NCBI RefSeq assembly: GCF_005696695.1
Contig: NZ_CP040006.1
Location: 1 to 32,000, forward strand
Reading direction: 5' to 3'
Source: Schaalia odontolytica
GTDB lineage: Bacteria; Actinomycetota; Actinomycetes; Actinomycetales; Actinomycetaceae
DNA length: 32,000 nucleotides
Numbering within the stretch: position 1 is the first letter of the stretch; each line of letters starts with the position of its first letter. The translations under genes and the position numbers were made by a program. The notes beneath the pieces were generated by a model. The model was not told where the DNA came from and ran no database searches. It saw only the letters and a list, made by a program, of their open reading frames with translations. Positions 8,382-32,000 of the stretch are shown piece after piece.

Positions 8382-11012
<2,631 letters not shown>

Positions 11013-11054: not shown

Positions 11055-11139
11055 ATCTGCCAAAGCGGCGCGGAACCAGCGCCGGTGCCAGGCGATGCGG
11101 TAGCCTGGCAGGTAGGAAGTGCGACCTGGAAGGAAACCC

Positions 11140-11532
11140 ATGAGCGACCACGTCTCGAGCACCCGCAGCGACGCTCCCCGCCGAGTTGACCTGGCCATCG
11201 CGCGCATCGACGCGTGGACCGTCATGAAGGTGGCGTTCCTGCTGTCCGTCGCCCTGGGTATCGCAATGGTCGTCGCCACGATCGTCCTGTGGCTCATGGT
11301 CGACGCCATGCACGTCTTCAGCCAGCTTGAGGAATTCCTCAAGACCATGGGCGCCGGACGCTACGCGGACCTCCTGGACTACGCTCGTCTGCCGCGCGTC
11401 ATCTCCTACGCGACCATCGTCGCAGTCATCAACGTCGTGCTGCTCACCGCCCTGTCGACGCTGGGAGCCATGCTCTACAACGTCGTCGCCTCGTTGGTGG
11501 GTGGCGTCAAGGTGTCTCTCATGGATGAGTGA
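11140..11532 (+). CDS. DUF3566 domain membrane protein (Rv0007-like)
   Basis: 130 aa from ATG 11140 (RBS GGAAGGAAA); an alternative GTG lies at 11119. Two TM helices. DLAIARIDAWTVMKVAFLLSVALGI and the C-terminal LYNVVASLVGGVKVSL are typical of the family. Conserved position after gyrA. Confidence 0.82.
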   Translation: MSDHVSSTRSDAPRRVDLAIARIDAWTVMKVAFLLSVALGIAMVVATIVLWLMVDAMHVFSQLEEFLKTMGAGRYADLLDYARLPRVISYATIVAVINVVLLTALSTLGAMLYNVVASLVGGVKVSLMDE

Positions 11533-11544
11533 GGGCACTCGCGC

Positions 11545-11573
11545 AAGGGGTCGGCTGATGTCGGCCCCTTTTG
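11545..11573 (+). terminator. intrinsic terminator after the DUF3566 gene
   Basis: AAGGGGTCGGC-TGAT-GTCGGCCCCTT followed by TTTG. 11-bp stem including two G.U pairs, with a T-run. Confidence 0.6.
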
Positions 11574-11600
11574 CTATGCCTTGTGACGGTTATCGCGCTG

Positions 11601-11642
11601 CTTGTAGCCCCGCCTGATCTCCTTGTAGCCCCGCCTGATCTC
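11601..11642. repeat. perfect 21-bp tandem duplication
   Basis: CTTGTAGCCCCGCCTGATCTC occurs at 11601-11621 and again at 11622-11642. Confidence 0.95.
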
Positions 11643-11700
11643 CGGCCGCCGCGTGTCCTGCCCGCCCGCGAGTCGTCCGCGCCGCGAGCTTCGCTCGGCG

Positions 11701-12052
11701 CGTCGTCTCGAAGCACGGCCAGGCCCCGCAGGCCACGCGGCGGCCTCCAATCGGGCGGTGCTTGGTACGTGTGCCCCGCCACCGCCCACCGGCACTGCGG
11801 CAGCTCCCTCCGGCGCCCTTCACATCAGTGGCGCCTTGTCGCTGACGTGTGGCCGGGGCGTCGTCTCGAAGCTCGGCCAGGCCCCGCAGGCCCCGCGGCG
11901 GCCTCCAATCGGGCGGGGCTTGGGGTGCGTGTGCTTGCTCTGGCCCCGCCACCGCCCACCGGCACCGCGGCAGCTCCCTCCGGCGCCCTTCACATCAGTG
12001 GCGCCTTGTCGCTGACGTGTGGCCGGGGCGTCGTCTCGAAGCTCGTCCCGGC
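11701..12052. repeat. GC-rich tandem repeat, module 1 of the composite element (locus A)
   Basis: Units start with CGTCGTCTCGAAGC at 11701, 11859 and 12029 (158 bp, 170 bp, then a partial unit). Copies 1 and 2 are nearly identical apart from a 12-bp indel. Preceded by the hairpin CGCGC(CG)CGAGC-TTC-GCTCGGCGCG at about 11679-11703. Confidence 0.9.
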
Positions 12053-12143
12053 CCCACTATCGCTCACTGTCGCCCGATGTCGGCGCTGCGTGGCCTCACC
12101 TGACTGTGTGTGCTGTACCTCGCTCGATGCCGGGTCATTAATT

Positions 12144-12249
12144 TCGCACGTAATTCCCCTGCGACTGTTTCAGGATTTGAATTGTGATCGTTGGTATTTC
12201 AACGTTTCTGCGTGTTGTTGTGGGGTCGGTCCGATCGAATTACGTGCGA
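12144..12249. repeat. 13-bp perfect inverted repeat flanking an AT-richer 80-bp core
   Basis: TCGCACGTAATTC (12144-12156) and GAATTACGTGCGA (12237-12249). Confidence 0.7.
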
Positions 12250-12300
12250 TTTTTCTAGGAGTGGGTTTGAAGCTACGTGTGGGTGTCGCAGATCCTTCGC

Positions 12301-12507
12301 GTGAAACCGGTTTGCCTGTGCTTGTGCGTGCTTGCGTGGGATTGAAACCGGCGTCGCCTTTGCGCGCTCGTACGTGGCTGGGGTTGAAACCGCCATCACC
12401 TTTGCGGGTGAGATACGGGTGTTTTTAGTGCGTTTTTCGGTTGCAGTGGTGTTGTTGGTTTCAATGGTTGCTGTTCAGGGGTGCGCAGTGGTGATGGTGG
12501 TTTCATG
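12301..12507. repeat. module 2 (locus A): 42-bp phased TGAAACC-N7-CC(T/A)(T/C)TGC motif array, 3 forward then 2 reverse units
   Basis: TGAAACC at 12302, 12343 and 12385. GGTTTCA at 12457 and 12499. The centre carries T-tracts (GTGTTTTTAGTGCGTTTTTCGG). Confidence 0.85.
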
Positions 12508-12571
12508 CTGGCCTGCATCAGTGGCTGCAGTGGTGTCATTATTTGCAAAGTCGCCACGGGCGGGGTCCTGC

Positions 12572-12735
12572 GTGTGAAGAAGTTCGCCCAGCACGGCCTG
12601 ATCGTGGGTGTGAGCGTGAAGTAGTTCGCCCAGCGCGCTCGAAACACCCCACATTTGACGTTTTTAAGGTTGCTGGGCGAATTTTGTCACGGGTTGAGTG
12701 GGGGACAGGGCGCGCCGGGCGAACTTTGTCACGCC
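12572..12735. repeat. module 3 (locus A): 42-bp phased GTGA-N5-TTCGCCCAGC motif array, 2 forward then 2 reverse units
   Basis: AGTTCGCC at 12581 and 12623. GGGCGAA at 12675 and 12717. AT-rich centre CACATTTGACGTTTTTAAGG. Confidence 0.85.
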
Positions 12736-12789
12736 TACCGGCTCGCTACTGTCACCGGCCCTTGCTCGGCCACAGGCCCCGTCCCCGTC

Positions 12790-12880
12790 CCGGAACAGTC
12801 CCGGCCCCGCCACCGCCTGCCGGCCCCGCCACCATAGTTTGCGGTGCCTCCGGCACCCTCCACATCGGCGTCGGTGGGGG
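12790..12880. repeat. degenerate extra copy of module 1
   Basis: CCCGGCCCCGCCACCGCC...GCGGTGCCTCCGGCACCCTCCACATCGGCG aligns with the GGCCCCGCCACCGCCCACCGGCACCGCGGCAG.TCCCTCCGGCGCCCT.CACA core of module 1. Confidence 0.6.
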
Positions 12881-13088
12881 TTTTGCAGCATTAGGAGCTG
12901 GATGTCGGCGTGTCGGCGGCGTGTCGGGGTTCTAATGACGTCATTTCCCCATGTGGCAGCAGTGAGGTCACGGTTCGAGGCCAAAGTGCAGACCACCTTG
13001 ATGAACAACGCTGACAACGGGCTGTTATGGGCGAGGTGGTCAAGGTTTTGGGTACACCGGTGATGTCGGTTTCTGTGGTTCCTTGTTG

Positions 13089-13119
13089 GGGGTGTGCAGT
13101 GGTGATGGTGGTTTCAATG
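13089..13119. repeat. distal near-identical copy of a module 2 reverse unit
   Basis: GGGGTGTGCAGTGGTGATGGTGGTTTCAATG (13089-13119) versus GGGGTGCGCAGTGGTGATGGTGGTTTCATG (12478-12507): one mismatch and one indel. Confidence 0.9.
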
Positions 13120-13323
13120 TCGCCACTTTATCGCCCAGTGGGCCTGGTGGCTGGGTCTATCTACTGGCGACCTTAACCCACCGATGCGCAGCTAAACCCC
13201 ATTGGTGGCATGGTGGGCAGCCCGCCCAGACCACCACCTGTCGGGTTAACGTGCGCGTAGGTGGGCTTAGATAGCCACCAGGTGGGCCCGCGTGCGCATC
13301 ACAGGGCCCGGGTGTCCGGTTCG

Positions 13324-14201
13324 CTAGTTGATGCCAATCCGCGTCGGGCGAGCCCGCAACAGTGCGCTGAGAACAGCACGCAGAAATCGGCCCGACCGCG
13401 ACGGCTGACGGTAATCGGGCGCAAGCGAAGACCTCTGACACCGCCACGCATAGGGGTTGTGGCTGAGCGGCCCCGGCCATGACGACGCGACGACGGTGGC
13501 CGGCGCGGGCAGGGGGAGCAGCGGACTCACCCAGGAACCCGCCGTCACGTAGATGTGTATCAGCCCGCAGATGCTCGCGAAAAATCCACCGTCAACAACC
13601 GGGGCTGGAAAACCCACGGGATCAAACGCGTAGACGTGCTTGAGCGGCGGAGGAGTGACCGTCGCAGCCGCGTACAGCGCGAGATTCGCGCCCTTCGAGT
13701 GTCCGACAACAATAATCGGCCCATCGGATCGCGACGCCGCATATGCCAGATAGTTGGCGGCCCACCGCTGCGAATCAGTCGGGAAATCAAGGCCGAAGCG
13801 GGCATCCTCCGCCCACCCGACCGCGCTTGCATTCGTCCCGCGGAAGACCACGTAGGTCGCCCCGGCCTCGTCGATGAAGGTGACGGAACCGAACTGAGCA
13901 AGCGGGCTCGACGTCAGCCGAGTGACCGCATCGCACACCGCAGGTCCCCGAAGCGCGCGCTCGCACCGGCGGCCTCGAGGAGGGGACGATCGGCGTGGGA
14001 CGCCAACGAATAGCGATACAGAGACGGGATTGACGAGGCCTGGGCGACTTCTCGGAGCAGGCATCCGCGCGCGGAACGAGGGCCGGGCAGCGCGTGGAAA
14101 TCCACGTAGACCAGGCACGAGAGAGCGAGGGCGTCGGCGGGGGAGAGGTCCGCTCGTAGCGGTGTGTGCGAGTCTCGGACGTGCTCGATGACGGTGGTCA
14201 C
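13324..14201 (-). pseudogene. DUF2974 (Mbeg1-like) alpha/beta hydrolase, disrupted by a -1 frameshift
   Basis: The N-terminal 95 aa (GTG 14201, RBS GGAGGAGG) stop at 13914. The rest of the fold continues in another frame (..LAQFGSVTFIDEAGATYVVFRGTNASAVGWAEDARF..IIVVGHSKGANLALYAAA..) down to 13324. This includes the GHSKG nucleophile elbow. Frame geometry fits loss of a single base near 13915-13975. Confidence 0.7.
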
Positions 14202-14268
14202 GAGGCCTCCTCCTCTCCATCGAGGGCCGGACGATCGCGGTCGTGTTGGACGTCACCAACGCTCGATT

Positions 14269-16856: not shown

Positions 16857-19800
16857 GTGCACATCAACCACACGTGGTCGAAGGCTTCCAAGCCGGCCCA
16901 GCTGCTTGCCATGCTGGTCACGACCGCCCTCGTTATGCTCGGCGTCACGACGCTGCCCACATATGCGGCGGCCCCGACGCTCAAACTCGCCATCACACCC
17001 GACGAGACCTCGTATCTCTCCGGTGTCGAGCAGCGCTACGTCGTCGAGTTCGCGTGCGCCTCCACCACGGAGGACTGCCTCGACTCGGTCGTCACCATCA
17101 CGCTGCCCCACACGGTGACCCCCGCGGGCAACTCGAACCTCGACTCGGCCCCCGAAGGCGTCAACGCCACGGCGACCGCCGGCAAGAAGGTCGTCACCCC
17201 CACGATCAAGGCTCCGACCGCTAACGCCGATGGCCTCGTCACCTACAACCTCGGAACAGTCGCCGCCGGCTCGTCGTTCCAGACGGTCCTGACCTTCACC
17301 GCCCCGCGCGGCGTGACCCCCGGCGGCTCCACCGTCACCCCGGTCGCGACCTTCACCTCGGGCGAGAGCAAGGAAACCTCCCAGGCGACCGTCACGATCA
17401 AGTCCGAGCCGACCCCGCTCCTGAGCAAGACCGGCCCGGTCGCAACCCCCAAGAACGTCGACGTGACCTACCAGATCACGCCGAAGTACGACACCAACGT
17501 GGACGGCCTCAACGGCAAGTCCAACATGACCGATGTCGTCATCACCGACCCGCTGCCCGCGTGCGCGAAGTACGTGTCCTCCTCGGCCTCGGGTAACACC
17601 AAGACGAACACGGCCGCGACCGTCGAGAGCTCCTACGACGCCGCGACCCACACCGTCACCTGGAACGTCGGCGACGTCAACCCCGCGTTCATGAACATCG
17701 TCCTGTCCGTCACCGTCCACTACGACGACACCTGCACGGACGAGACCGTCACCAACACCGCGAAGCTCACCGGCAAGGAGATGCACAACGAGACCAACGT
17801 TGTCACCGCCGATGCTTCCTTCACGCACCGCTTCGACAGCGAGATCCGCTACGGTGGCGGCTTCAACAAGCGCGCCATGAGCCAGTTCGAGCGCGGCAAG
17901 CAGGGCAACTGGCTGTACAGCTACTCCAACAACTCCAACGTCCCGGTCGTCATGGAGTACACCGACTACATGACCTGTGGCCTCGTCTCCCCGACCGACG
18001 GCTCCAAGGACTGCGACAAGCCCCTCATGCGCGTCAAGACGATCGACACCCAGACGACGACGCCCATCGAGATTACCTACTGGACCAACAAGGGCAACAC
18101 CGGCACTCAGACCGTCTACCGCGGCAAGGCATTCGACTTCTCCTCCTTCGCCGCCGACGAGTACCTGACCGTCTTCCACTACAAGCAGACGATCCCCGCC
18201 GGTGAGTCCTCGATCCTGAACGTCGCCGGCCCGGTCGGCGCCGGCACCCCAACGACCGAGGACGGCACCACCTACGTCCAGGCCGATACCAACTCCGCCG
18301 CATGGAAGGCCGGCAAGTCCGACCAGTACGTGCGCGTCCAGAACTGTGTCTCCGACTGGTCCATGAAGTCCCTCGACGGCTCCCGATCCATCCAGATCCC
18401 CGCCGACGACTACTGCGACATCCTCACGCTGGGCACCGCGCTGCCCAAGTACTACAACGCCAAGTCCACCATCAAGGGCAACCTGGCGTCCCCCGGCTCC
18501 GAGGTTACCTTCAGCGTCACCGCGAACAACACCTCGACCGTCGTTGACTCCCAGCCCGTCATCTCCGACCTGCTGCCCTGCGGCATGACCTTCGTCGAGG
18601 ACTCCGTCACCGGTGGTCCCGCAGGTAAGGAAAAGACCGTCACGGTCCGCGACGTCACCGACGCCACCGGCTGCACCCGCCAGCTCGTCCAGGTCACCTG
18701 GCCCGGCTACCAGACCAAGGGTGGCACCACCATCCAGCTGCGCGGCAAGGTCGGCCCCTCGATGAGCGCAGGCACGCACAAGAACGAGGCCTACATCTCC
18801 GCAGCCGAACCCGAGTACGCGCTGACCTCCAAGAAGACCACGATCTGCTTCTACGGCTCCACCGACGACACCTACGATGTCAACGGTGATGGCAACACGG
18901 CCGACCAGGTCTGCCCCGTCTCCTCGACCTTCACGGTCTCCGAGCAGGCCGGTGCCGACGTCGTCCTCGAGAGCCTCGGCTCCGTGGAAGGCTCGACCTA
19001 CAAGAAGTACACCGACGGCGTGTCCATGATCCGCCAGGGTGAAGACGGCCAGTACCGCATCACCCCCACCAACTCCGGTAACGCGGACCTGTCCGACATG
19101 ACCGTGTACGGCATCCTGCCCCACGTTGGTGATACCGCCATCCAGGGTTCTGATTCTCGTGGCTCCGAGTGGGCGCCCATCCTCACCGGCCCCCTCCAGG
19201 TCGGCGCAGGCTCGGGCATCGACCCCTCGCAGGTCACCATCGAGTACTCAACCTCCTACAACCCCTGCCGCGGCGAAGTCATGAAGCAGGGCGACGCGAT
19301 GGCGGCTGGCCCCGCCGGATGCGACAACAACTGGACCGCTACTCCGGCCTCGTGGGCCGACGTGAAGTCCTACCGCATCTACATCAACGGCAAGGCCACC
19401 CCGATCAAGGCCGGCGCATCGATCCCGATCATCGCGCCCATCAAGGCCCCCGATAACGCGACCGGCATCGCCTACGAGTCCGTCGCGATCGCGGCCACCC
19501 AGGCCTCGAACAACCGTGCCATCCTGCCCGCCGAGCCGATCAAGGTCGCCATGGCCCTCGCGCTCGACGTCGCCCTCAACAAGACCGTCGTCTCCGACGC
19601 TTCCAACCTGAAGCCCGGAGACCAGGTCACCTACCGCATCGACGCCGGCAACATCGGCCAGGGCAAGGCCCCCGACCTCAAGGTCAAGGAAGCCTTCCCC
19701 GCAGGTACCACCTTCGTGTCCGCCGAGACGCACAAGTGCGCCTCCGGCTACACGACCGGCCTGCCGCAGGAATGTAAGGGCACCGACGAGGCCGGCACCT

Positions 19801-22800
19801 TCGACGGCACCACGTGGACGATCGGCGACATGCTCGCCGGCGAATACGCCTCGCTCTTCGTGACCGTCACGCTGGACGCCGGCACCGACGGCAAGACCCT
19901 CAACAACACGGCCGCCTTCGTGAACCCGCCCGAGTACGACCTCGTGCCCGGCAACAACTCCTCCTCGGCGTCCATCACCGTCAAGCATCGCCTCTCCGGC
20001 AAGGTGTACTACGACGCGAACGAGTCCTCCTCCTTCGACAACGGTGAGGACCCCTTCAAGGACATCACGGTCGAGCTGGTCGGTGCCGACGGTAACGTCG
20101 TCGCCACCACCAAGACCGACGCGGACGGCAACTACTCCTTCACCGGCCTTGACGCCGGAACCTACACGGTCAAGGTCACCAAGGCCGGCGAGATCGCCGA
20201 GCTGACCCAGACCGAGGATCCGGACGGCACGAAGGACAACGCCTCCGGCGCGATCACGCTCAACGCCGACAACCCGGTCCGCGAGAACGTCAACTTCGGC
20301 TACATCAAGAAGCACGCGATCTCCGGCAACGTCTACCTCGATCAGAACCGCGATAAGACGAAGAACACGGGCGATATCGACCTGTCCGGTGTCACCGTGA
20401 AGCTGCTCGACAAGGACGGCAACGTCGTGGGTACCACCACGACCGACAAGGACGGCAACTACTCCTTCACCGGCCTCAGCGACGGCACCTACACCGTCCA
20501 GGTCGACAAGACCGGCCCGCTGGCGGACAAGGAGCAGACCGAGGATCCCTCCGGTAAGACGGACTCGCGTTCGCAGGCCATTACCTTCACGCGCAGCGAC
20601 CCGGACGTCACCAACGTCAACTTCGGCTACGCCGAGGACTACACGGTCTCCGGCACTGTGTACTACGACAAGGACCGCTCCGAGTCCCTCAACAACTCCG
20701 AGCCCGGCTTCGACGGCATCACCGTGAACCTGCTCGGCGAGGACGGCTCGGTCGTCGCGACGACCACGACGAAGGCAGACGGCACGTACTCCTTCTCCAA
20801 GCTGCCCGCCGGCAAGTACACCGTCAAGGTGGAGCCCTCCGACCTCCTCAAGAAGCTCGAGCAGACCGAGGACCCGGACGGCACCAAGGACCACACCTCC
20901 GGCGTCGTCCAGGTGAACCACGACAACCCCTCCGTGAAGAACGTGAACTTCGGTTACGCCACGAACTACACGATCAAGGGCACCGTCTACCGTGACGCCG
21001 ACCGCTCCGAGTCCCTCGAGAACGGCGAGAAGCTCTACCAGGGTGTGACCGTCGACCTTCTCGACACGGACGGTAACGTCGTGGCCACCACGACCACCGA
21101 CGCCAAGGGCGCCTACGCGTTCACCAACCTCGAGGAAGGCACCTACAAGGTCCGCGTCCACAAGGAAGGCCCCATCGCCGACCTCGTCCAGACCGAGGAC
21201 CCCGACGCCACCAAGGACAACACCTCCGGTGACATCACCCTCGAGCTGAACGACCCGATCAAGGAGAACGTCAACTTCGGGTACATCTCGAACAACTCGA
21301 TCTCCGGCACGGTCTACCGCGACGACAACCGCTCCAACTCCCTCAACGGGGGAGAGGCCGGCTACCCCGAGCAGACGGTCCAGCTCCTCGATAAGGACGG
21401 ACAGGTCATCGCGACCACCAAGACCGACGCCAACGGCAACTACTCCTTCGACAACCTGCCCGACGGCACCTACTCCGTCAAGGTCGTCAAGGACGGTGCC
21501 CTCACCGACCTCGAGCAGACCGAGGACCCGGACGGCACCAAGGACAGCGCCTCCGAGCCCATCGTCCTGAACGAGGACAACCCCACGAAGAAGAACGTCA
21601 ACTTCGGCTACGTGCCCGACTACTTCATCAAGGGCACCATCTACCGTGACGGCAACCGCTCCGGCGCGCTGGACACGGATGAGAAGCTCTACGAGGGCGT
21701 GACGGTCAACCTGGTCGACGCCGACGGCAACGTCGTCGCCACCACCACGACCGACGAGAAGGGCAACTACTCCTTCGACAAGCTCCCCGCGGGCACCTAC
21801 TCCGTCAAGGTCGTTCAGGATGGCCCCATCGCCGGCCTCGAGCAGACCGGCGACCCGGACGCCACGAAGGACAACGCCTCCGAGCCCATCACGCTGAACA
21901 ACGACAACCCGTCCAAGACGGACGTCAACTTCGGCTACGTGAACAACAACTCCCTGTCGGGCACCGTCTACCGCGATGACTCGCGCAACGGCGACCAGGA
22001 CGGCACCGAGCCCGGATACTCCGGCGTGACGGTCCAGCTCCTCGACAAGGACGGCAACGTCGTGGGTACCACGACGACCGACAAGGACGGCAAGTACTCC
22101 TTCGAGCACCTGCCCGACGGCACCTACTCCGTCAAGGTCGTCAAGGACGGCGAGCTCGCCGACACCGAGCAGACCGAGGACCCGGACGCGAACAAGGACA
22201 ACGCCTCCGAACCGGTGACCCTGGGCGAGGACAACCCCTCCAAGGACAACATCGACTTCGGATACGTTCCCGACTACTCGATCCACGGCCTCGTCTACCG
22301 AGACGGTGACCGCTCCGAGTCGCACGGCGCGACCGAGAAGGGCTACGCCAACCAGACCGTCGAGCTGCGCGACAAGGACGGCAAGGTCGTCGCGACCACC
22401 ACGACGGACGAGAACGGCGCCTACTCCTTCGAGAAGCTGCCCGCCGGCGACTACACCGTCAAGGTCGTCAAGGACGGTGCCCTCACCGACCTCGACCAGA
22501 CGGAGGACCCGGACTCCACCAAGGACTCCACCTCCGGCGTCATCTCGCTGAGCAACGACCACCGCACCGAAACGGACGTCAACTTCGGCTACATTGCCAA
22601 CAACTCCATCAACGGCACCATCTACCGTGACGGTGACCGCGATGGAAAGAAGGGCGACACCGAAGGACGCTACTCCGGCGTGACGGTCCAGCTCCTCGAC
22701 AAGGACGGTAAGGTCATCGCCACCACGACGACCGACAAGGACGGCAAGTACTCCTTCGAGCACCTGCCCGACGGCACCTACTCCGTCAAGGTCGTCAAGG

Positions 22801-23714
22801 ACGGTGCCCTCACCGACACCGACCAGACCGGCGACCCCGACAACAAGCTGGACAACGCGTCCGAGCCGATCACCCTCGACGAGAAGAACCCCACCAAGGG
22901 TGACGTCGACTTCGGCTACGTCCCGAACAACACCATCAAGGGCACCGTCTACCGCGACGACAACCGCGACAAGACGATCGACGGTGACGAGCCCGGCCTC
23001 GAGCGTGTGAGCGTCCAGCTCCTCGACGAGGACGGCAAGGTCCTCCAGACCCTCGACACCGACGCGGACGGCAACTACGCCTTCCAGCACCTGCCCGACG
23101 GCAAGTACACCGTCAAGGTCGTGCGCTCCTCGTCCATCAAGGACTACGACCAGACCGAGGACCCCGACGCCACCGTCGACGACACCTCCGCGGTGTACAC
23201 GATGGGCCCGGAGAACTCCCTGCAGGAAAAGGTCAACTTCGGCTACGTCCCGGACTACTCGATCGCCGGTCGCGTCTACCGCGACTCCGACAAGTCCGGC
23301 TCCTACACCGACGGTGAAGAGACCTTCTCCGGCGTGACGGTCGACCTGCTCGACAAGGACGGCAACGTCGTGGCCACCACGACGACCGACAAGGACGGCA
23401 ACTACTCCTTCGAGAAGCTGCCCGCCGGCACCTACCGCGTCAAGGTCCACCCGGACGGCGACCTCGCCGGCCTCGACCAGACCGAGGACCCGGACGGCAT
23501 CGCCGACTCCATGTCCGGTGAGATCACGATCGGCTTCGACAACCAGAAGGTCACCGGCGTGAACTTCGGTTACGTCGCGCCCGACGTCCCGGCCACCAAG
23601 CCGAAGAAGGGCCTCGCCCGCACCGGCTTCGACGGCCTGATCGGCGGGGCTGGCCTGGGAGCGGCCGTCGTTGGCGGCATGTTCCTGTGGATGCGTCGCC
23701 GTCGCCAGGACTGA
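16857..23714 (+). CDS. cell-wall-anchored surface adhesin: DUF11/Ig-like N-terminal region, 11 SdrD B-like (Cna-B type) repeats and an LAxTG sorting signal
   Basis: 2285 aa, GTG start with AGGAGAAGG RBS. Signal peptide (..LVMLGVTTLPTYAAAP). DUF11-type segments, e.g. LNKTVVSDASNLKPGDQVTYRIDAGNIGQGKAPDLKVKEAFPAGTTFVSA. C-terminal LARTG (23613-23627), then a hydrophobic helix and RRRRQD tail. Confidence 0.94.
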   Translation: MHINHTWSKASKPAQLLAMLVTTALVMLGVTTLPTYAAAPTLKLAITPDETSYLSGVEQRYVVEFACASTTEDCLDSVVTITLPHTVTPAGNSNLDSAPEGVNATATAGKKVVTPTIKAPTANADGLVTYNLGTVAAGSSFQTVLTFTAPRGVTPGGSTVTPVATFTSGESKETSQATVTIKSEPTPLLSKTGPVATPKNVDVTYQITPKYDTNVDGLNGKSNMTDVVITDPLPACAKYVSSSASGNTKTNTAATVESSYDAATHTVTWNVGDVNPAFMNIVLSVTVHYDDTCTDETVTNTAKLTGKEMHNETNVVTADASFTHRFDSEIRYGGGFNKRAMSQFERGKQGNWLYSYSNNSNVPVVMEYTDYMTCGLVSPTDGSKDCDKPLMRVKTIDTQTTTPIEITYWTNKGNTGTQTVYRGKAFDFSSFAADEYLTVFHYKQTIPAGESSILNVAGPVGAGTPTTEDGTTYVQADTNSAAWKAGKSDQYVRVQNCVSDWSMKSLDGSRSIQIPADDYCDILTLGTALPKYYNAKSTIKGNLASPGSEVTFSVTANNTSTVVDSQPVISDLLPCGMTFVEDSVTGGPAGKEKTVTVRDVTDATGCTRQLVQVTWPGYQTKGGTTIQLRGKVGPSMSAGTHKNEAYISAAEPEYALTSKKTTICFYGSTDDTYDVNGDGNTADQVCPVSSTFTVSEQAGADVVLESLGSVEGSTYKKYTDGVSMIRQGEDGQYRITPTNSGNADLSDMTVYGILPHVGDTAIQGSDSRGSEWAPILTGPLQVGAGSGIDPSQVTIEYSTSYNPCRGEVMKQGDAMAAGPAGCDNNWTATPASWADVKSYRIYINGKATPIKAGASIPIIAPIKAPDNATGIAYESVAIAATQASNNRAILPAEPIKVAMALALDVALNKTVVSDASNLKPGDQVTYRIDAGNIGQGKAPDLKVKEAFPAGTTFVSAETHKCASGYTTGLPQECKGTDEAGTFDGTTWTIGDMLAGEYASLFVTVTLDAGTDGKTLNNTAAFVNPPEYDLVPGNNSSSASITVKHRLSGKVYYDANESSSFDNGEDPFKDITVELVGADGNVVATTKTDADGNYSFTGLDAGTYTVKVTKAGEIAELTQTEDPDGTKDNASGAITLNADNPVRENVNFGYIKKHAISGNVYLDQNRDKTKNTGDIDLSGVTVKLLDKDGNVVGTTTTDKDGNYSFTGLSDGTYTVQVDKTGPLADKEQTEDPSGKTDSRSQAITFTRSDPDVTNVNFGYAEDYTVSGTVYYDKDRSESLNNSEPGFDGITVNLLGEDGSVVATTTTKADGTYSFSKLPAGKYTVKVEPSDLLKKLEQTEDPDGTKDHTSGVVQVNHDNPSVKNVNFGYATNYTIKGTVYRDADRSESLENGEKLYQGVTVDLLDTDGNVVATTTTDAKGAYAFTNLEEGTYKVRVHKEGPIADLVQTEDPDATKDNTSGDITLELNDPIKENVNFGYISNNSISGTVYRDDNRSNSLNGGEAGYPEQTVQLLDKDGQVIATTKTDANGNYSFDNLPDGTYSVKVVKDGALTDLEQTEDPDGTKDSASEPIVLNEDNPTKKNVNFGYVPDYFIKGTIYRDGNRSGALDTDEKLYEGVTVNLVDADGNVVATTTTDEKGNYSFDKLPAGTYSVKVVQDGPIAGLEQTGDPDATKDNASEPITLNNDNPSKTDVNFGYVNNNSLSGTVYRDDSRNGDQDGTEPGYSGVTVQLLDKDGNVVGTTTTDKDGKYSFEHLPDGTYSVKVVKDGELADTEQTEDPDANKDNASEPVTLGEDNPSKDNIDFGYVPDYSIHGLVYRDGDRSESHGATEKGYANQTVELRDKDGKVVATTTTDENGAYSFEKLPAGDYTVKVVKDGALTDLDQTEDPDSTKDSTSGVISLSNDHRTETDVNFGYIANNSINGTIYRDGDRDGKKGDTEGRYSGVTVQLLDKDGKVIATTTTDKDGKYSFEHLPDGTYSVKVVKDGALTDTDQTGDPDNKLDNASEPITLDEKNPTKGDVDFGYVPNNTIKGTVYRDDNRDKTIDGDEPGLERVSVQLLDEDGKVLQTLDTDADGNYAFQHLPDGKYTVKVVRSSSIKDYDQTEDPDATVDDTSAVYTMGPENSLQEKVNFGYVPDYSIAGRVYRDSDKSGSYTDGEETFSGVTVDLLDKDGNVVATTTTDKDGNYSFEKLPAGTYRVKVHPDGDLAGLDQTEDPDGIADSMSGEITIGFDNQKVTGVNFGYVAPDVPATKPKKGLARTGFDGLIGGAGLGAAVVGGMFLWMRRRRQD
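19992..23576 (+). repeat. 11 tandem in-frame repeats of about 327 bp (109 aa) encoding SdrD B-like domains
   Basis: Each unit reads xSGxVYxDxxR..GxxGVTVxLLDxDGNVVATTTTDxDGNYSFxxLPxGTYxVKVxxxGxLxxLxQTEDPDxTKDNxS..NPxxxNVNFGY. There are 11 (N/D)FGY unit ends. Confidence 0.92.
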
Positions 23715-23762
23715 GGATCATTCGGCCTGAGCCTCGACGAGGCAGTGGCTGAGTGAGCCGAC

Positions 23763-23794
23763 AAGGGGCGGGTACTTCGGTACCCGCCCCTTTG
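23763..23794 (+). terminator. intrinsic terminator of the adhesin gene
   Basis: AAGGGGCGGGTAC-TTCG-GTACCCGCCCCTT then TG. Perfect 13-bp stem, UUCG loop, short T-run, 49 nt after the stop. Confidence 0.7.
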
Positions 23795-23952
23795 GCGTAC
23801 CTGGGTGGTCGTGTGATGTACCCGGGCGGTTGTGTGGGCCGGGCTACTTGTGGCCTCACGGGTGTTCCGGGTGCCGTCGGGCCCGGCCGCTGTGTGTTCC
23901 GGTGGGCGGCGGCCCGCCCGCTCGCCGTCCGCGCCGCGAGCTTCGCTCGGCG

Positions 23953-24148
23953 CGTCGCCTCGAAGCCCGGCCAGGCCCCGCCACCGCCCACCGGCACCGC
24001 GGCAGATCCCTCCGGCGCCCTCCACACCAGTGGTGCCGGGTGTGTTGATGGGCACGGCGCGTCGTCTCGAAGCCCGGCCAGGCCCCGCCACCGCCCACCG
24101 GCACCGCGGCCAGGCCCTGCCGCCATCCACCGGTGTGGCCGGTGACTC
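23953..24148. repeat. module 1 (locus B): two 107-bp tandem units
   Basis: CGTCG(C/T)CTCGAAGCCCGGCCAGGCCCCGCCACCGCCCACCGGCACCGCGGC starts at 23953 and 24060. Preceded by the same hairpin-containing lead-in CCGCGCCGCGAGCTTCGCTCGGCG as locus A. Confidence 0.9.
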
Positions 24149-24150
24149 TC

Positions 24151-24316
24151 GTGAAACCGTCATCACCTTTGCTGGCGCGTGCTCTGTCTCCAGTGAAACC
24201 GACGGCACCATTGCTCGACAGAAACACCCGTTTTTGATGCTATGTCTTCGAGCAAAGGCGTCGTGGGTTTCATGGTGGCATCATGAGGCTCCAGCATTGG
24301 TGCCCGCGGTTTCACA
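24151..24316. repeat. module 2 (locus B): 2 forward plus 2 reverse TGAAACC-type units, 42-bp phased
   Basis: TGAAACC at 24152 and 24194. GGTTTCA at 24266 and 24308. Centre GAAACACCCGTTTTTGATGC. Confidence 0.85.
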
Positions 24317-24339
24317 CAACGGCAGGGCGAGCAGTTTCG

Positions 24340-24462
24340 GCGCGAAAAAGTTCGCCCTGCTCGGCCTGGTGTGGGCGTAAGCGCGAAAAAGTTCGCCCAG
24401 CATACGAAAAATGGCCCAAAAATGGTGTTATATGGCGTGCTGGGCGAGTTTTTTCGCGGGCG
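24340..24462. repeat. module 3 (locus B): 2 forward plus 1 reverse TTCGCCCAGC-type units
   Basis: AGTTCGCC at 24349 and 24390. 21-nt inverted repeat CGCGAAAAAGTTCGCCCAGCA (24382-24402) / TGCTGGGCGAGTTTTTTCGCG (24438-24458), 19 of 21 complementary. 35-nt A-tract spacer. Confidence 0.88.
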
Positions 24463-24647
24463 TGAGCTCGAAGGCCTCGTGTGGGTGGCAGGTGGTCAGT
24501 CTCCAGTGTTCAAGCCACCGCGGCACCCGGTGTGACTGGTGTTGTGGGTGCCTGGGGGATGTCGCGAAGGTGGGCAGGAAGCTGTTGCAAACGCAAACCT
24601 GTGAGGATGAAGCCGATGACGCCGCGTCCAACGATCTGCATACAGAA

Positions 24648-24673
24648 GCGCCCGGGGCCGTGGCCCCGGGCGC
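24648..24673 (-). terminator. terminator of the minus-strand murJ-trxB-PAP2 operon
   Basis: GCGCCCGGGGCC-GT-GGCCCCGGGCGC, a perfect 12-nt inverted repeat 27 nt downstream of the PAP2 stop. On the minus strand it is followed by TTCTGTAT. Confidence 0.6.
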
Positions 24674-24699
24674 TCCCGGCAACAACTGAGCTCCGATAA

Positions 24700-25341
24700 C
24701 TAGCGGAACAACTTTAGGGCGTTAGGCCCAATCATGAACGGCGCCAAGATCATCGACGAGCCCAGACCCACGCTGAAGCCGGCGATCACGTCGGTCACCC
24801 AGTGGACGCCCAGGTACAGGCGAGTCACGCAGATGAAGACGATGAGCGTCAGCGCCGCGGCCCACAGCAGGTAGCGCAGACGGCGACCGACGCGCGTCGT
24901 CGTCAGGACCAGCACCAGGGACACGAACAGCGCAGTCACGGCCGTCGCGTGACCCGACGGGAACGAATAGCCGTCCTCGGTGATCAGGCGTAGCGCCTCC
25001 TCGGGGCGAGGACGCTCGTACAGGTGCTTGATGATGTAGCTGTTTGCGGCCGAGAACACGACGGAACACAGGATGTACAGGGCGTTCATGACCTTCTTGA
25101 TGAACCACCACACGGCGCCCGCCACGACCAGCGCCACGACGACCGCGCGCTTGGGGTCGAACAGCCACGAGGCGCCCGTCATGAAGGAGTTCATCGCCGG
25201 CGTGCGCGACGCGACGAAGTCAGACCACACCGTGGTGTCGATCGACAGGGGACTCGTGATGAATCCGCCCGCGACGGCGACAGCAGCGACGAGGAGAACC
25301 CCGATGATCACGGGGGGAGTCAGGAGGCGACGAGCAATCAT
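24700..25341 (-). CDS. PAP2 superfamily phosphatase (membrane lipid-phosphate / polyprenyl-diphosphate phosphatase type)
   Basis: 213 aa with multiple TM helices. The three PAP2 motifs are KHLYERPRP, SFPSGHA and TRLYLGVHWVTDV. Confidence 0.9.
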   Translation of the reverse strand: MIARRLLTPPVIIGVLLVAAVAVAGGFITSPLSIDTTVWSDFVASRTPAMNSFMTGASWLFDPKRAVVVALVVAGAVWWFIKKVMNALYILCSVVFSAANSYIIKHLYERPRPEEALRLITEDGYSFPSGHATAVTALFVSLVLVLTTTRVGRRLRYLLWAAALTLIVFICVTRLYLGVHWVTDVIAGFSVGLGSSMILAPFMIGPNALKLFR

Positions 25342-29905: not shown

Positions 29906-32000
29906 GGGGTCTCCTTCGTCGTTGCTGTCTCGGATTCAGTGGTGATGTCTGTCGTGTCGGTGTCGCCGGATGCGGCCCGCGCCTTGCGTGCGGCCCTCTT
30001 GCGCAGTGAACGCGTGATGCCGACCAGGAAGAGCAGGCCGAAGAGCGAGGCGATGACGGCCGTGATCGCATCCTCCCACCCGGCGCGCATGCGCACGGTC
30101 ACGGTCTGGGAGTCGTCGAGGACGAGGCCGTCGGGTGTGGTGACCTTGTACGTGACCTCGATGTCGCCACTGCCGATCGCGCCCACGGGCACCTCAACCG
30201 TCGTCGCGCCCTGCGCGGCGAGCGTCTGGGATTGGGCGGGGGTGGCGCGCAGACGCGGGTCGTCGGGCACGAGGGTCACGTCGACGCGCACCGGCCAGGG
30301 CAGGTTATTGCGCACGAGGACAGGGAAGTTCGCTGATTTGTTAATGAGGTTGACGGCCGAGGAGGGCTCGACGGTCACGGCGGAGAGCATGGTCGTGACC
30401 TGCGAGGTGACGGCAGTCGCCGCGTCGAGCTGCTCGGAGGGGGTGAGCTGCGCGGACAGAGCCGGGAGAATCTGGGGGGTGACCGAGGCGTACACCGCGT
30501 CGGCGTCGTCCGTCGCCTTCGCCAGCGGTGTGAGCATGGTCAGGGACGAGGCCATGGCCGAGATCGCGGTCTCCGTGTCGGCCTCGAGGACGCCGGCCCC
30601 GACGGTCTGGCGGTCGATGTCGGTGGGTTCACTGGCGGCCATCTCGCTGAAGGACATGGCGCTCACCCAGCGTGGCGAGAACAGGGCTTTTGTGCGGCCG
30701 GTGAGCCGCTCGTTGATGACGGTTCCGCGCTGGGCCGCAGCGAAAATGGTGCGCGAGGAGGCTGGGCGCTCGCGGGTGATGATCGCGGTGATTGCGGTGA
30801 GGGCCTGTTCGGCGTCGAGCTCGTCGCCGCCGGATGCGTTCCACGACAGGAGCGCCGCGATGTCGCTCTGCTGGGCGAGGGTGCGTGCGCCCGTCCCGTC
30901 CGTCGAGGTCTCGCCGGTGGCGGGGTCGACGTTGACGCGCGCGTAGGAGGTGAAGGGAACGTCTTCGGAGGGGGTCAGGGTGCCGACCGGAGCGATCGTG
31001 ATCTGCTGCGAGGAGGCGAAACCCGACAGGAATGACGTGCCGAAGGTCGTGTCCGCAGGCCAGGCGACGTTACGCAGGATCGAGGGCCCGGAGTCGGGCG
31101 CGGAGGTCGTCGTGGTGGACTGGCCGGCGGTGTTCGTGGATGCGCTCGGCGTGGGCGTGGCCTCGGGTGTCCCGGAGGGGGAGGGCGTGGCCGAGGCCGA
31201 CGGGCTCGGGCTGGCCGGAGAGTTGGCGGGTGCGACCCACCCGGCCTTGCGCAGCGTGTCGGGGAAGTCGGCCATCGAGCGCGAGGCGCGGTCCCAGAAG
31301 CCGGTGTTGCCCGATAGCGACAGGGCACCGAGGTCGGCATCTCCCTCGGGCAGGGCGATGATCTCGGTCGCGTTCGACAGGAGCGCCGCGACGAAGGCCT
31401 CGGACTGGAGGTCACGCGCGCGCTGCGCTGGGTCCGTGGCCGTGGGGGCGGGCGTCGGGGTGGGGGACGCGCTCGGCGAGGCCGAGGGGGCACCGGACTG
31501 ACCCGATTCCGCGTCGGACTGGCCGGACTGGGCGGGGTCAGATCCGGATTGGCCCGCGTCGGCCGAAGGGGAAGCCGAAGGGGAAGCCGAAGGAGAAGCC
31601 GAAGGAGAAGCCGAAGGGGTCGGCGTGGCCGTGGGCTGCGGGCCGCGAGGGATCAGCAGCGGGTCGACGGCCAGGGTGACGCCGCTGGCGGAGGCGAGGC
31701 TGAGGACCGCCGAGCGTTCGCCCTGGTCCTGGGTGGCGCTCGTTGATGTCCAGGGGATCACGGTGCTCACGCGCGAGGCGGAGACCTGCGCGCCCGAGTC
31801 CCACACGATGATCGATCGGTCCTTGCCCGAGTATTCGCCGGAGGTCGCAGTCACGGTTGTGACGCGCGGGCCCCACTCATCGGCGTCCGTGAGAGGCAGC
31901 GAGGACGTGGGAATGTGGATCTCGAAGGAAGTCGTGGCTCCTCGGGCGACGTCCGTGAGCGAGGAGGAGGCCGCGTGGGTGGCGTCCGGCTCGTCATCGG
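29902..32000 (-). CDS. large secreted/membrane-anchored protein, DUF6049-like (Rv3909 position), 5' end outside the window
   Basis: The frame is open from 32000 down to the stop at 29902, with no stop upstream of the track Met at 31854. C-terminal TM helix AVIASLFGLLFLVGI and basic/acidic tail. Ser/Pro/Ala low-complexity inserts. Lies immediately upstream of, and overlapping, murJ as in other Actinobacteria. Family assignment is by position and memory only. Confidence 0.7.
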   Translation of the reverse strand, partial: DDEPDATHAASSSLTDVARGATTSFEIHIPTSSLPLTDADEWGPRVTTVTATSGEYSGKDRSIIVWDSGAQVSASRVSTVIPWTSTSATQDQGERSAVLSLASASGVTLAVDPLLIPRGPQPTATPTPSASPSASPSASPSASPSADAGQSGSDPAQSGQSDAESGQSGAPSASPSASPTPTPAPTATDPAQRARDLQSEAFVAALLSNATEIIALPEGDADLGALSLSGNTGFWDRASRSMADFPDTLRKAGWVAPANSPASPSPSASATPSPSGTPEATPTPSASTNTAGQSTTTTSAPDSGPSILRNVAWPADTTFGTSFLSGFASSQQITIAPVGTLTPSEDVPFTSYARVNVDPATGETSTDGTGARTLAQQSDIAALLSWNASGGDELDAEQALTAITAIITRERPASSRTIFAAAQRGTVINERLTGRTKALFSPRWVSAMSFSEMAASEPTDIDRQTVGAGVLEADTETAISAMASSLTMLTPLAKATDDADAVYASVTPQILPALSAQLTPSEQLDAATAVTSQVTTMLSAVTVEPSSAVNLINKSANFPVLVRNNLPWPVRVDVTLVPDDPRLRATPAQSQTLAAQGATTVEVPVGAIGSGDIEVTYKVTTPDGLVLDDSQTVTVRMRAGWEDAITAVIASLFGLLFLVGITRSLRKRAARKARAASGDTDTTDITTESETATTKETP
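31562..31619. repeat. 12-bp in-frame tandem repeat (4.8 copies)
   Basis: GCCGAAGG(G/A)GAA repeated. On the minus strand it encodes (SPSA)n inside the DUF6049-like protein. Confidence 0.9.

Follow-up and report, generated by a model that had tools for sequence, protein, structure and literature searches.

Two gene-end loci of Schaalia odontolytica belong to a lineage-specific family of ordered mosaic palindromic repeats

The first 32,000 nucleotides (nt) of the Schaalia odontolytica contig NZ_CP040006.1 (this whole stretch is called the window; G+C content 66%) contain two long non-coding loci between genes, locus A (~11540-13323) and locus B (23715-24699). The first-pass annotation had described locus B as a second, shorter and collinear copy of the element in locus A, which raises the question of what kind of element this is, how widely it occurs, and what it may do at the ends of genes. 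The sequence of locus B with its flanks recurs without differences in NCBI contig LLVT01000001.1, named Schaalia odontolytica XH001 in PMC12369343. We found that locus B, a short form, and locus A, a longer one, are copies of a lineage-specific family of non-coding mosaic repeats of the S. odontolytica group (GTDB: Pauljensenia). In its full form, the element strings together different imperfect palindromes in a fixed and polar order. The head and module 1 come first, with a right arm that is often repeated in tandem, and the modules after them are optional. The family is apparently undescribed, and is of the same general kind as the mosaic repeats of E. coli and pneumococcus. Full-text literature searches returned no description of this repeat.

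Two copies of one ordered element

Local alignment of locus A (11540-13323) with locus B (23715-24699) gave a score of 203, compared with 27.8 ± 2.7 (maximum 33) for dinucleotide-shuffled sequences. Positions 23836-24457 match 11601-12732 in the order head, module 1, module 2, module 3, and the collinear alignment also bears out that both loci have the same orientation. Homology had been placed just past the terminator of the upstream adhesin gene, and the block 23795-23948 of locus B indeed matches 11660-11696 of locus A (z 12.5 against shuffles, as for the following values). The module 1 block 23949-24150 matches 11773-11887 (z 32.8), the module 2 block 24152-24314 matches 12343-12505 (z 9.7), and the module 3 block 24330-24465 matches 12576-12693 (z 20.4). 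The unit numbers predicted for locus B were recovered as well: module 1 consists of two 107-nt units, with cores starting at 23949 and 24056, module 2 of two forward and two reverse units, and module 3 of two forward units and one reverse unit. However, the weakly similar tail that had been proposed was not found, since 24470-24640 compared with 12950-13323 or with the whole of locus A stayed at chance level (z 0.3-2.2). Module motifs in the window are confined to loci A and B, except for one chance match with 6 mismatches. Locus B contains the following features:

23836..23913, plus strand: head of locus B, the G-rich left arm of the module 1 palindrome (GGGCCGGGCTACTTGTGGCC..GGTGTTCCGGGTGCC..GTTCCGGTGGGCGGCGGC)
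23914..23979, plus strand: apex of module 1, a hairpin followed by the most conserved core of the family, CTCGAAGCCCGGCCAGGCCCCGC
23949..24150, plus strand: two 107-nt units of module 1, each made of part of the apex and the C-rich right arm (GCCACCGCCCACCGGCACCGCGGC...CCCTCCGGCGCC); repeat families D4, D5, D7 and D8
24152..24314, plus strand: module 2, unit TGAAACCnnCnnCRCCnnTGC, with forward starts at 24152 and 24194 and reverse starts at 24252 and 24294, 42 nt apart
24342..24457, plus strand: module 3, unit GCGAAAAAGTTCGCCCAGCA with the small palindrome GCGAA-N4-TTCGC, with forward starts at 24342 and 24383 and a reverse start at 24438
24458..24636, plus strand: tail of locus B, a locus-specific G-rich sequence that is not demonstrably part of the family

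The tail has fewer than 3-5 related matches among 120 other loci. In most copies the apex hairpin is closed by GAG...CTC; the left side in locus B reads CTCG, not CGAG, and with this variant the closing pairs are not predicted. The centre of module 2 in locus B is of a divergent subtype, and the central units lie 58 nt apart from start to start, with 37 nt between them. In module 3 the starts of the last forward and the first reverse unit are 55 nt apart. This geometry is equal in loci A and B, including the 42-nt period and both central distances.

We scanned 185,579 species-representative genomes, in 8-kb tiles, for exact matches to the 22-base module 1 core CTCGAAGCNCGGCCAGGCCCCGC. The core was present in at least 120 tiles, and the family statistics on order, geometry, position and structure given in this work are drawn from the tiles listed in that scan. 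Among the matches listed, all but two chance matches belong to genomes of Schaalia, Pauljensenia, and oral or gut 'Actinomyces sp.'. One genome has at least 16 tiles with the core, and another at least 11. Contigs end inside the element in several short-read assemblies whose PAP2 or DUF3566 protein is exactly identical to that of the window. Many copies are also carried by the records 'Xylanimonas cellulosilytica strain 352_XCEL' and 'Sanguibacter keddieii strain 250_SKED' (NZ_JVKM01..., NZ_JVOJ01...). The flanks of these copies are orthologous to S. odontolytica loci, and both records are probably mislabelled Schaalia genomes.

Mapping of four motifs revealed the order module 1, module 2, module 3 in about 35 clusters among the matches listed. 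The exceptions were L060, in which the block of modules 2 and 3 is inverted, and L097. The internal geometry is similarly constant. Of 75 intervals between module 2 units, 71 have the 42-nt period, and 33 of 36 modules have a central start-to-start distance of 58 nt. Module 3 has a period of 42 or 41 nt, with a central distance of 55 nt in 22 of 28 modules. The number of units varies, from 1 to 4 forward and from 1 to 5 reverse, and their orientation is arranged in blocks (all forward, then all reverse) and not in alternation. The module 3 unit holds a 5-bp palindrome; the module 2 unit is not palindromic. Spacers between units fall into a few conserved types that are common to different loci, and the linkers between modules are conserved across loci. 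As had been suggested from the two loci, short cores are kept and the rest has diverged: the units show a column identity of 0.84-0.94 and the centres one of 0.79-0.87, against 0.60-0.72 for the spacers, so that the decay is uneven.

Locus A, a nearly full-length copy, possesses modules that locus B of XH001 lacks. Its features are:

11601..11661, plus strand: head, second variant, two 21-nt copies of CTTGTAGCCCCGCCTGATCTC followed by CGGCCGCCGCGTGTCCTGC (tandem repeat)
11662..12057, plus strand: module 1 with three units, cores at 11697, 11855 and 12025, periods of 158 and 170 nt
12138..12258, plus strand: module 4, an A+T-richer palindrome, TCGCACGTAATTC ... GAATTACGTGCGA, with the perfect 13-nt inverted repeat I9
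12299..12550, plus strand: module 2, forward starts at 12343, 12385 and, weakly, 12301, reverse starts at 12443, 12485 and, weakly, 12527
12574..12732, plus strand: module 3, forward starts at 12574 and 12616, reverse starts at 12671 and 12713
12780..13300, plus strand: distal modules, all absent from locus B of XH001, as follows
12780-12870, plus strand: C-rich stretch resembling the right arm
12878-12955, plus strand: module 5, GGGGGTTTTGCAGCATTAG...CTAATG...CCCC
12965-13045, plus strand: module 7, AAAGTGCAGACC...
13054 and 13096: starts of two reverse module 2 units
13140-13300, plus strand: module 6, GTTAACCC...GCGCAGCTAAACCC...GGGTTAACGTGCG

The family is larger and has more modules than the first-pass annotation indicated. 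The commonest full order is head, module 1, (module 4), module 2, module 3, linker, module 5, module 7, module 6. Module 3 followed by the linker, module 5 and module 7 was also found in L028, L055, L118, and L119. The distal modules of locus A have 5-14 related matches per 50-nt bin in other loci. Module 4 has 15-32 such matches; it is without counterpart in locus B of XH001.

Every module is an imperfect palindrome. The G-rich head and the C-rich part of module 1 form the left and right arms of one long imperfect palindrome, with the apex hairpin and then the invariant core between them, and the tandem 107-nt units are extra copies of the end of the apex and the right arm. We estimate that the whole module 1 hairpin would span roughly 200 nt or more. 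The head variant of locus A is 80% complementary to 11728-11762 and 11886-11920 (inverted repeats I1 and I2), and thus pairs with a matching variant of the right arm. Inverted ends, as in miniature inverted-repeat transposable elements (MITEs), are present in individual modules but not in the composite as a whole, whose head and distal end differ.

The head (TTGCTTGTGGCCCCGCTGGTGTTCCGGGCGCC...GTGCCGGTGGGCGGCGGC) is conserved in about 50 loci. It starts 5-30 nt past the terminator of the upstream gene or transfer RNA (tRNA) or, where there is no terminator, a few bases past the stop codon. At three non-orthologous loci (L038/L105, L039/L045, and L087/L100/L102) the head is preceded by the terminator-like hairpin GCCGCCCGGCCCC-N3-4-GGGGCCGGGCGG(T/C)TT, which may be one more mobile 'terminator' module, reminiscent of the pneumococcal SPRITE.

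Position, polarity and turnover

Each of the two loci follows a plus-strand gene that has a terminator hairpin, and is bordered on its other side by the 3' end of a gene on the minus strand, in agreement with the first-pass annotation. Their surroundings in the window are:

window start to 11532, plus strand: dnaA, dnaN, recF, gyrB, gyrA (8382-11012) and DUF3566 (11119-11532), in this order
~11540-13323: locus A, between DUF3566 (plus) and the Mbeg1-like gene (minus)
13324-14259, minus strand: Mbeg1-like gene, followed by tRNA-Ile, tRNA-Ala and a photolyase gene (minus)
16857-23714, plus strand: adhesin gene, 2285 amino acids
23715-24699: locus B, between the adhesin gene (plus) and the PAP2 gene (minus)
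23765..23794, plus strand: intrinsic terminator of the adhesin gene, in the flank outside the element, GGGGCGGGTAC-TTCG-GTACCCGCCCC followed by TTT, read from the sequence
24648..24673, minus strand: terminator hairpin of the PAP2 gene, in the flank, GCGCCCGGGGCC-GTG-GCCCCGGGCGC, the right-hand limit of the variable region
24700-25341, minus strand: PAP2 gene

The terminator scan placed the terminator after DUF3566 at 11553-11566.

It had been asked whether copies always sit in convergent intergenic regions, and they do not. With genes called by a crude finder based on GC3 (G+C content at third codon positions), which misses some genes, 44% of the element-bearing intergenic regions were convergent, 51% tandem, and 6% divergent; the other intergenic regions of the same tiles were distributed 14/66/20% (chi-square p = 7e-9). 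The element is co-oriented with the adjacent upstream gene in 85% of the cases, against only 38% for the gene directly downstream. Among the copies in tandem contexts, 26 are co-oriented and 8 opposed (p = 0.003). For second and third neighbours on both sides the agreement is 56-59%, compared with the 85% of the adjacent upstream gene. The polarity is therefore local to the gene end and not just an effect of the replichore, and we rejected orientation driven by the replichore on this basis. A better rule for these copies is that they stand behind a gene and point the same way, and that they are rarely found in promoter regions.

Comparison of orthologous loci revealed differences in content at constant sites. 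The orthologue of locus A in Pauljensenia sp. 27098_8_107 (L036) has the same module order and other unit numbers. Locus B in other strains or species (L002 and L104) has the same head, the same module 1, and the same PAP2 terminator hairpin, which is thus common to strains whose internal modules differ. Instead of modules 2 and 3, these two copies possess module 4, the CTGGATAG module, and modules 5, 7 and 6. Strain L002 encodes a PAP2 protein identical to that of XH001, and its locus B nevertheless contains different modules. All genomes seen have an element at the site of locus B, and none of them gave an empty site. We therefore regard the sites as old and stable, with a content that turns over by slippage and recombination.

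The CTGGATAG module is a further palindromic module, located at about 11400-11470 in L002 and also present in L104. It is composed of three forward and three reverse units (CTGGATAG / CTATCCAG) with a period of about 20 nt and a short A+T-rich centre, and is absent from XH001. Since this module occurs only in other strains, the family has strain-specific modules.

Folding and possible roles of the element

Structure was assessed for module 1 with RNAalifold on 47 distinct copies. The consensus contains a long-range stem and the apex hairpin, and 98.5% of the cells form standard pairs, compared with 34-42% when the partner columns are slid. Thirty cells are changed on both sides, against 14.2 ± 2.4 in shuffles, none of which reached 30 (0/500). 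The arms occur in two covarying haplotypes (CCGG/CCGG and CCCG/CGGG; UA/CG). As the signal comes mainly from two linked positions, the covariation represents few independent events. At least four sequence types of the apex hairpin were found, all of which fold, with paired changes such as GAGC/GCTC to GAGCC/GGCTC, GAGGC/GCCTC to GAGAC/GTCTC, and CGCGCC/GGCGCG to CACGCC/GGCGTG. These include the simultaneous insertion of a C and a G, and swaps from G-C to A-U.

In module 2, 86% of the cells are paired, against 39-51% when slid, and positions 8-12 of the unit are mostly unpaired in the hairpin model. G.U pairs exceed A.C mismatches in module 2 (63:13 and 57:5) and in module 3 (38:7 and 19:2). 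For 29 of 30 blocks of modules 2 and 3, the sense RNA is predicted to fold more stably than its antisense (-174 vs -134 kcal/mol); coding DNA behaves in the opposite way, with the sense strand more stable in 0 of 40 samples. For the whole of locus B the predicted folding energy is -452.8 kcal/mol in the sense direction (z -6.9) and -409.5 kcal/mol in the antisense direction (z -4.0). The asymmetry exists because the sense strand is rich in G and T. Fourfold sites of the neighbouring genes are uninformative on mutation bias as a source of this skew, because C-ending codons dominate there.

We favour the reading that the family is a mosaic repeat resembling BIME and BOX elements, probably co-transcribed as a chain of 3' hairpins. 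The element would be transcribed as read-through or 3' untranslated RNA of the upstream gene, and its RNA would fold into a chain of long hairpins. At the 3' end, such a chain may block 3'-5' decay, may offer processing sites of the RNase III type, and, chiefly where genes converge, may reduce read-through into the neighbour. The family would probably have spread first as selfish, non-autonomous DNA, and its present evolution would consist mainly of slippage of the 42-nt and 107-nt units and recombination between copies.

Several observations weigh against this explanation. Transcription and folding of the RNA are inferred from the DNA, and since many upstream genes have their own terminator just before the head, read-through into the element may be low. 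The terminator scan detected hairpins followed by a U-tract only in the flanks, and none inside modules 1-3. Pairing shows no covariation beyond the conserved columns in module 2 (86.2% paired vs 86.0% in shuffles), and none in module 3 (0.695 observed vs 0.701 shuffled). As conserved columns fully explain the pairing, modules 2 and 3 give no direct evidence of ongoing selection for it, and their pairing potential could be inherited rather than selected. Module 1 has no asymmetry between sense and antisense (17/47), and the G+T-rich sense strand could itself be an inherited or mutational property. The element of L036 is 80-89% identical to locus A, whereas the flanking genes are 95-97.6% identical, with 94% at third codon positions; this divergence, faster than that of flanking synonymous sites, argues against strong purifying selection on the sequence. 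Finally, the strict 42-bp phasing would also be in keeping with a protein that binds to the DNA, and so would the invariant cores TGAAACC/GGTTTCA and GCGAA-N4-TTCGC.

The first of the alternatives is that the family is a relic of MITE-like or REPIN-like non-autonomous mobile DNA, purely selfish or neutral, which has no role for the host and is tolerated only behind genes, where it is harmless. Its conserved cores would then reflect what a former mobilising enzyme needed, or recent common descent together with gene conversion. The rapid divergence of orthologous copies relative to flanking synonymous sites is in agreement with such a relic, as are the exchange of modules between strains, the missing within-copy covariation in modules 2 and 3, the depletion of copies in divergent (promoter) regions, and the palindromic nature of all modules, which is shared with MITEs and REPINs. 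However, the 24-nt flanks of 36 module 2 and 28 module 3 copies contain no direct repeats that would represent target-site duplications. As the junctions are conserved linkers without such repeats, the modules do not represent separate MITE insertions. Neither a transposase gene nor a RAYT-like one was seen beside any of the copies, and the conserved positions across species give no sign of recent movement. The 85% co-orientation with the adjacent upstream gene would need an extra assumption. Altogether, we regard a relic without any host role as possible but rather unlikely.

An origin from phages or plasmids was also considered and rejected, as BLAST of phage and plasmid records gave no similarity. 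No full-length relative was found in phages or plasmids. An autonomous relative with the same ends was likewise not found in about 1 Mb of Schaalia tiles (motif maps), in the phage and plasmid collections, or in IMG/VR beyond three host-like contigs. The IMG/VR matches consisted of chance single matches, module 2 in these three contigs of one oral metagenome, and three single module 3 matches, with none for the module 1 core. The three contigs, which are classed as viral (L135, L146, and L150 of metagenome 3300045988; 64-65% G+C), carry an element of modules 1, 2 and 3 near the contig end, and may be Schaalia prophage borders or misclassified host DNA.

The second alternative places the function at the level of DNA. 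The 20-21-bp units, which are repeated every 42 bp (four helical turns) and point inwards around an A+T-richer centre, would be bound cooperatively by a nucleoid-associated, gyrase-like or partition-like protein that acts where transcription units end. Models for such an array are BIME-2 with gyrase, BIME-1 with IHF, and the 43-bp sopC repeats of plasmid F. The strict period and centre length in both modules and in all species are consistent with it, and so are the invariance of the TGAAACC and GCGAA-N4-TTCGC cores next to variable spacers and the mostly unpaired positions 8-12 of the module 2 unit, which would fit a protein target with two half-sites. Positive supercoils build up behind genes and between convergent genes, where the copies are located. 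Nonetheless, a partner protein was not identified, and binding to the duplex predicts neither the excess of G.U over A.C and the G+T-rich sense strand nor the polarity towards the upstream gene. Simple tandem duplication of a 42-nt unit would also give fixed periods. The resemblance of module 2 to a parS site is limited to one half of it, and perfect parS sites of the host are found elsewhere and not in the window. We judge such an array unlikely.

The idea that TGAAACC is a ParB/parS half-site was rejected as unsupported, given that host parS sites are perfect 16-mers elsewhere (L066 and L103). In these related genomes perfect parS sites (TGTTTCACGTGAAACA) are clustered, with five in L066 and two in L103, and one of them abuts the head of an element. 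The oriC-proximal 32-kb window contains no parS, even when 3 mismatches are allowed.

The arrays of modules 2 and 3 could also be landing pads for a dedicated host factor, such as a DNA- or RNA-binding protein or a topoisomerase, with the composite as a domesticated 'gene-end insulator', a view that we hold to be improbable. If true, the insulator would act at tens of transcription-unit ends in the S. odontolytica group, where it would control read-through, supercoiling or RNA decay. It would then be an actinobacterial counterpart of the BIME/gyrase/IHF system, with a more elaborate and ordered architecture.

It is very unlikely that the loci are independent non-coding RNA genes or an RNA-based system with its own promoter, such as the repeat RNA of a type III antitoxin or a CRISPR-like array. 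The strong predicted structure, the conserved apical loops (centre columns 0.79-0.87 identical) and the repeats with a fixed period are what such genes might offer. However, no Rfam family matched, and no promoter-like site was found in either locus, by which promoters inside the modules were also rejected. The tens of copies per genome, the variable module content, the forward units followed by reverse ones and not all direct, the 'spacers' of few conserved types common to loci, and the lack of an adjacent cas or toxin gene do not fit either. In Rfam 15, only two tRNAs of the window reached the gathering score, and nothing meaningful appeared in either locus at E <= 1. A CRISPR array in the strict sense was rejected because of the forward and then reverse units, the shared spacer types, and the absence of cas genes in the window. 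Protein-coding repeats were also rejected: none of the unit lengths (107, 158 and 170 nt) is divisible by 3, and five overlapping open reading frames (ORFs) had no Pfam match. The C-rich right arms were not convincing as Rho-utilisation sites, with a C/G ratio of only ~1.9 and still ~28% G.

A segmental duplication within the genome, with two copies only and uniform decay, would account for the collinearity and equal orientation of loci A and B, and is ruled out for practical purposes by the genome scan with its at least 120 tiles from many genomes, the recurring order of modules 1, 2 and 3, the element-bearing orthologues of both loci in other species, the different module 2 subtypes at the two loci, and the uneven conservation of units and spacers. 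The preference of the first-pass annotation for a multi-copy family or selection on motifs over a recent segmental duplication is thus supported by copy number, assembly breaks and uneven decay.

Related repeats, setting and significance

The element fits the kind of interspersed mosaic hairpin repeats, and is not a member of any named family, since target duplications as in MITEs, alternating REP units as in REP/BIME, and the defining features of CRISPR and of intrinsic terminators were looked for and were not found, and no RAYT gene was seen beside the copies or in the window. The BIMEs (bacterial interspersed mosaic elements) of enterobacteria are clusters of REP sequences; they affect messenger RNA (mRNA) stability, and bind IHF, gyrase and Pol I (PMC3184786). 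The Schaalia element shares with them its extragenic location, many copies, G+C-rich palindromic units with conserved linkers, a bias to 3' ends and convergent regions, and a variable number of units (PMC3184786). However, BIMEs alternate single REPs of ~35 nt, and the 20-40-nt palindromic basic unit in alternating orientation is not found in the Schaalia element, which has forward blocks followed by reverse blocks with a 42-nt period. It also contains at least seven different modules in a fixed polar order, extends up to 1.8 kb, lacks a REP signature of the GTAG type, and resides in an actinobacterium with 66% G+C. No RAYT, a tyrosine transposase of the IS200/IS605 kind, was seen near any copy or in the window, and no genome-wide search was made for it.

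The BOX elements of Streptococcus pneumoniae (boxA - boxB(n) - boxC) are intergenic, transcribed and non-autonomous, and their ends can pair into a long hairpin (PMC3184786). Like BOX, with its internal units of ~45 nt, the Schaalia element is modular with a variable number of internal units (PMC3184786). BOX, however, has three module types and direct boxB repeats, and possesses neither a chain of palindromes nor symmetric arrays; the Schaalia arrays are symmetric sets of forward and reverse units, rather than direct repeats enclosed by a box at each end. Mobilisation of BOX is attributed to a known insertion sequence, and none is known for the Schaalia element. SPRITE, a pneumococcal element that resembles Rho-independent terminators, and the REPs of Pseudomonas between convergent genes are similar in that they form hairpins and have a proposed role at the RNA level (PMC3184786, a review that also covers the Correia elements). 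Unlike these short single hairpins with a U-tract, the Schaalia modules have no U-tract directly after a G+C-rich hairpin (modules 1-3), and are part of a composite that is far larger.

Neisserial intergenic mosaic elements (NIMEs) and Correia MITEs form mosaic intergenic repeat arrays with inverted-repeat ends, and their hairpin RNA can be cut by RNase III. The Schaalia element likewise consists of intergenic mosaic arrays of repeat units. Correia elements, which are 100-160 bp long, carry terminal inverted repeats and TA target duplications, whereas the Schaalia element shows no target duplications, and its polar order of many modules is without counterpart in NIMEs and Correia elements. As in REPINs (REP doublets, mobilised by RAYT transposases), the module 3 unit has a small palindrome, GCGAA-N4-TTCGC, and two inverted units can form a larger hairpin; unlike in REPINs, the units are multiplied at a fixed 42-nt period inside a larger ordered composite. 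The sopC site of plasmid F has 43-bp repeats with short cores about every four helical turns. Conserved short cores at a spacing of about four helical turns are also found here. In contrast to sopC-type centromere sites, which are direct repeats in one place next to partition genes, the Schaalia units face inwards, occur in tens of chromosomal copies, and have no adjacent partner gene.

Other features of the window were also observed. The adhesin contains 10.4 tandem repeats of 327 nt (109 amino acids) of the SdrD_B/CarboxypepD_reg type with 69% identity, and ends with LARTG, a hydrophobic stretch and RRRRQD. We take this LARTG end to be a sorting signal of the LAxTG type, recognised by a class E sortase. 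The Mbeg1-like gene has a fourfold-site G+C of only 0.70, against 0.77-0.94 in the other sampled genes (at least 0.82 in all but the photolyase gene, 0.77), and may have been acquired horizontally. Near the window end, at 31562-31619, a 12-nt tandem repeat, GCCGAAGGGGAA, is present 4.8 times with 95% matches, inside overlapping minus-strand ORFs.

Strain XH001 of this oral bacterium is the laboratory host of the ultrasmall epibiont TM7x, and now serves as a genetic model for which a transposon library exists (PMC12369343). Mapping-quality filters such as the one in the transposon-sequencing study of this strain (PMC12369343) discard reads that come from near-identical repeats, which distorts intergenic analyses. 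A repeat family at many gene ends also breaks short-read assemblies, and in this way too distorts analyses of intergenic regions. Variation in unit number at fixed loci could serve as a marker for strain typing. The need for a U-tract in intrinsic terminators is debated for high-G+C actinobacteria. For this reason these bacteria are a good place in which to study hairpin chains, and the family offers a test bed for the effect of long 3' hairpin chains on termination and mRNA decay. With this family, a large, ordered and polar mosaic repeat is added to a class known mainly from proteobacteria and streptococci.

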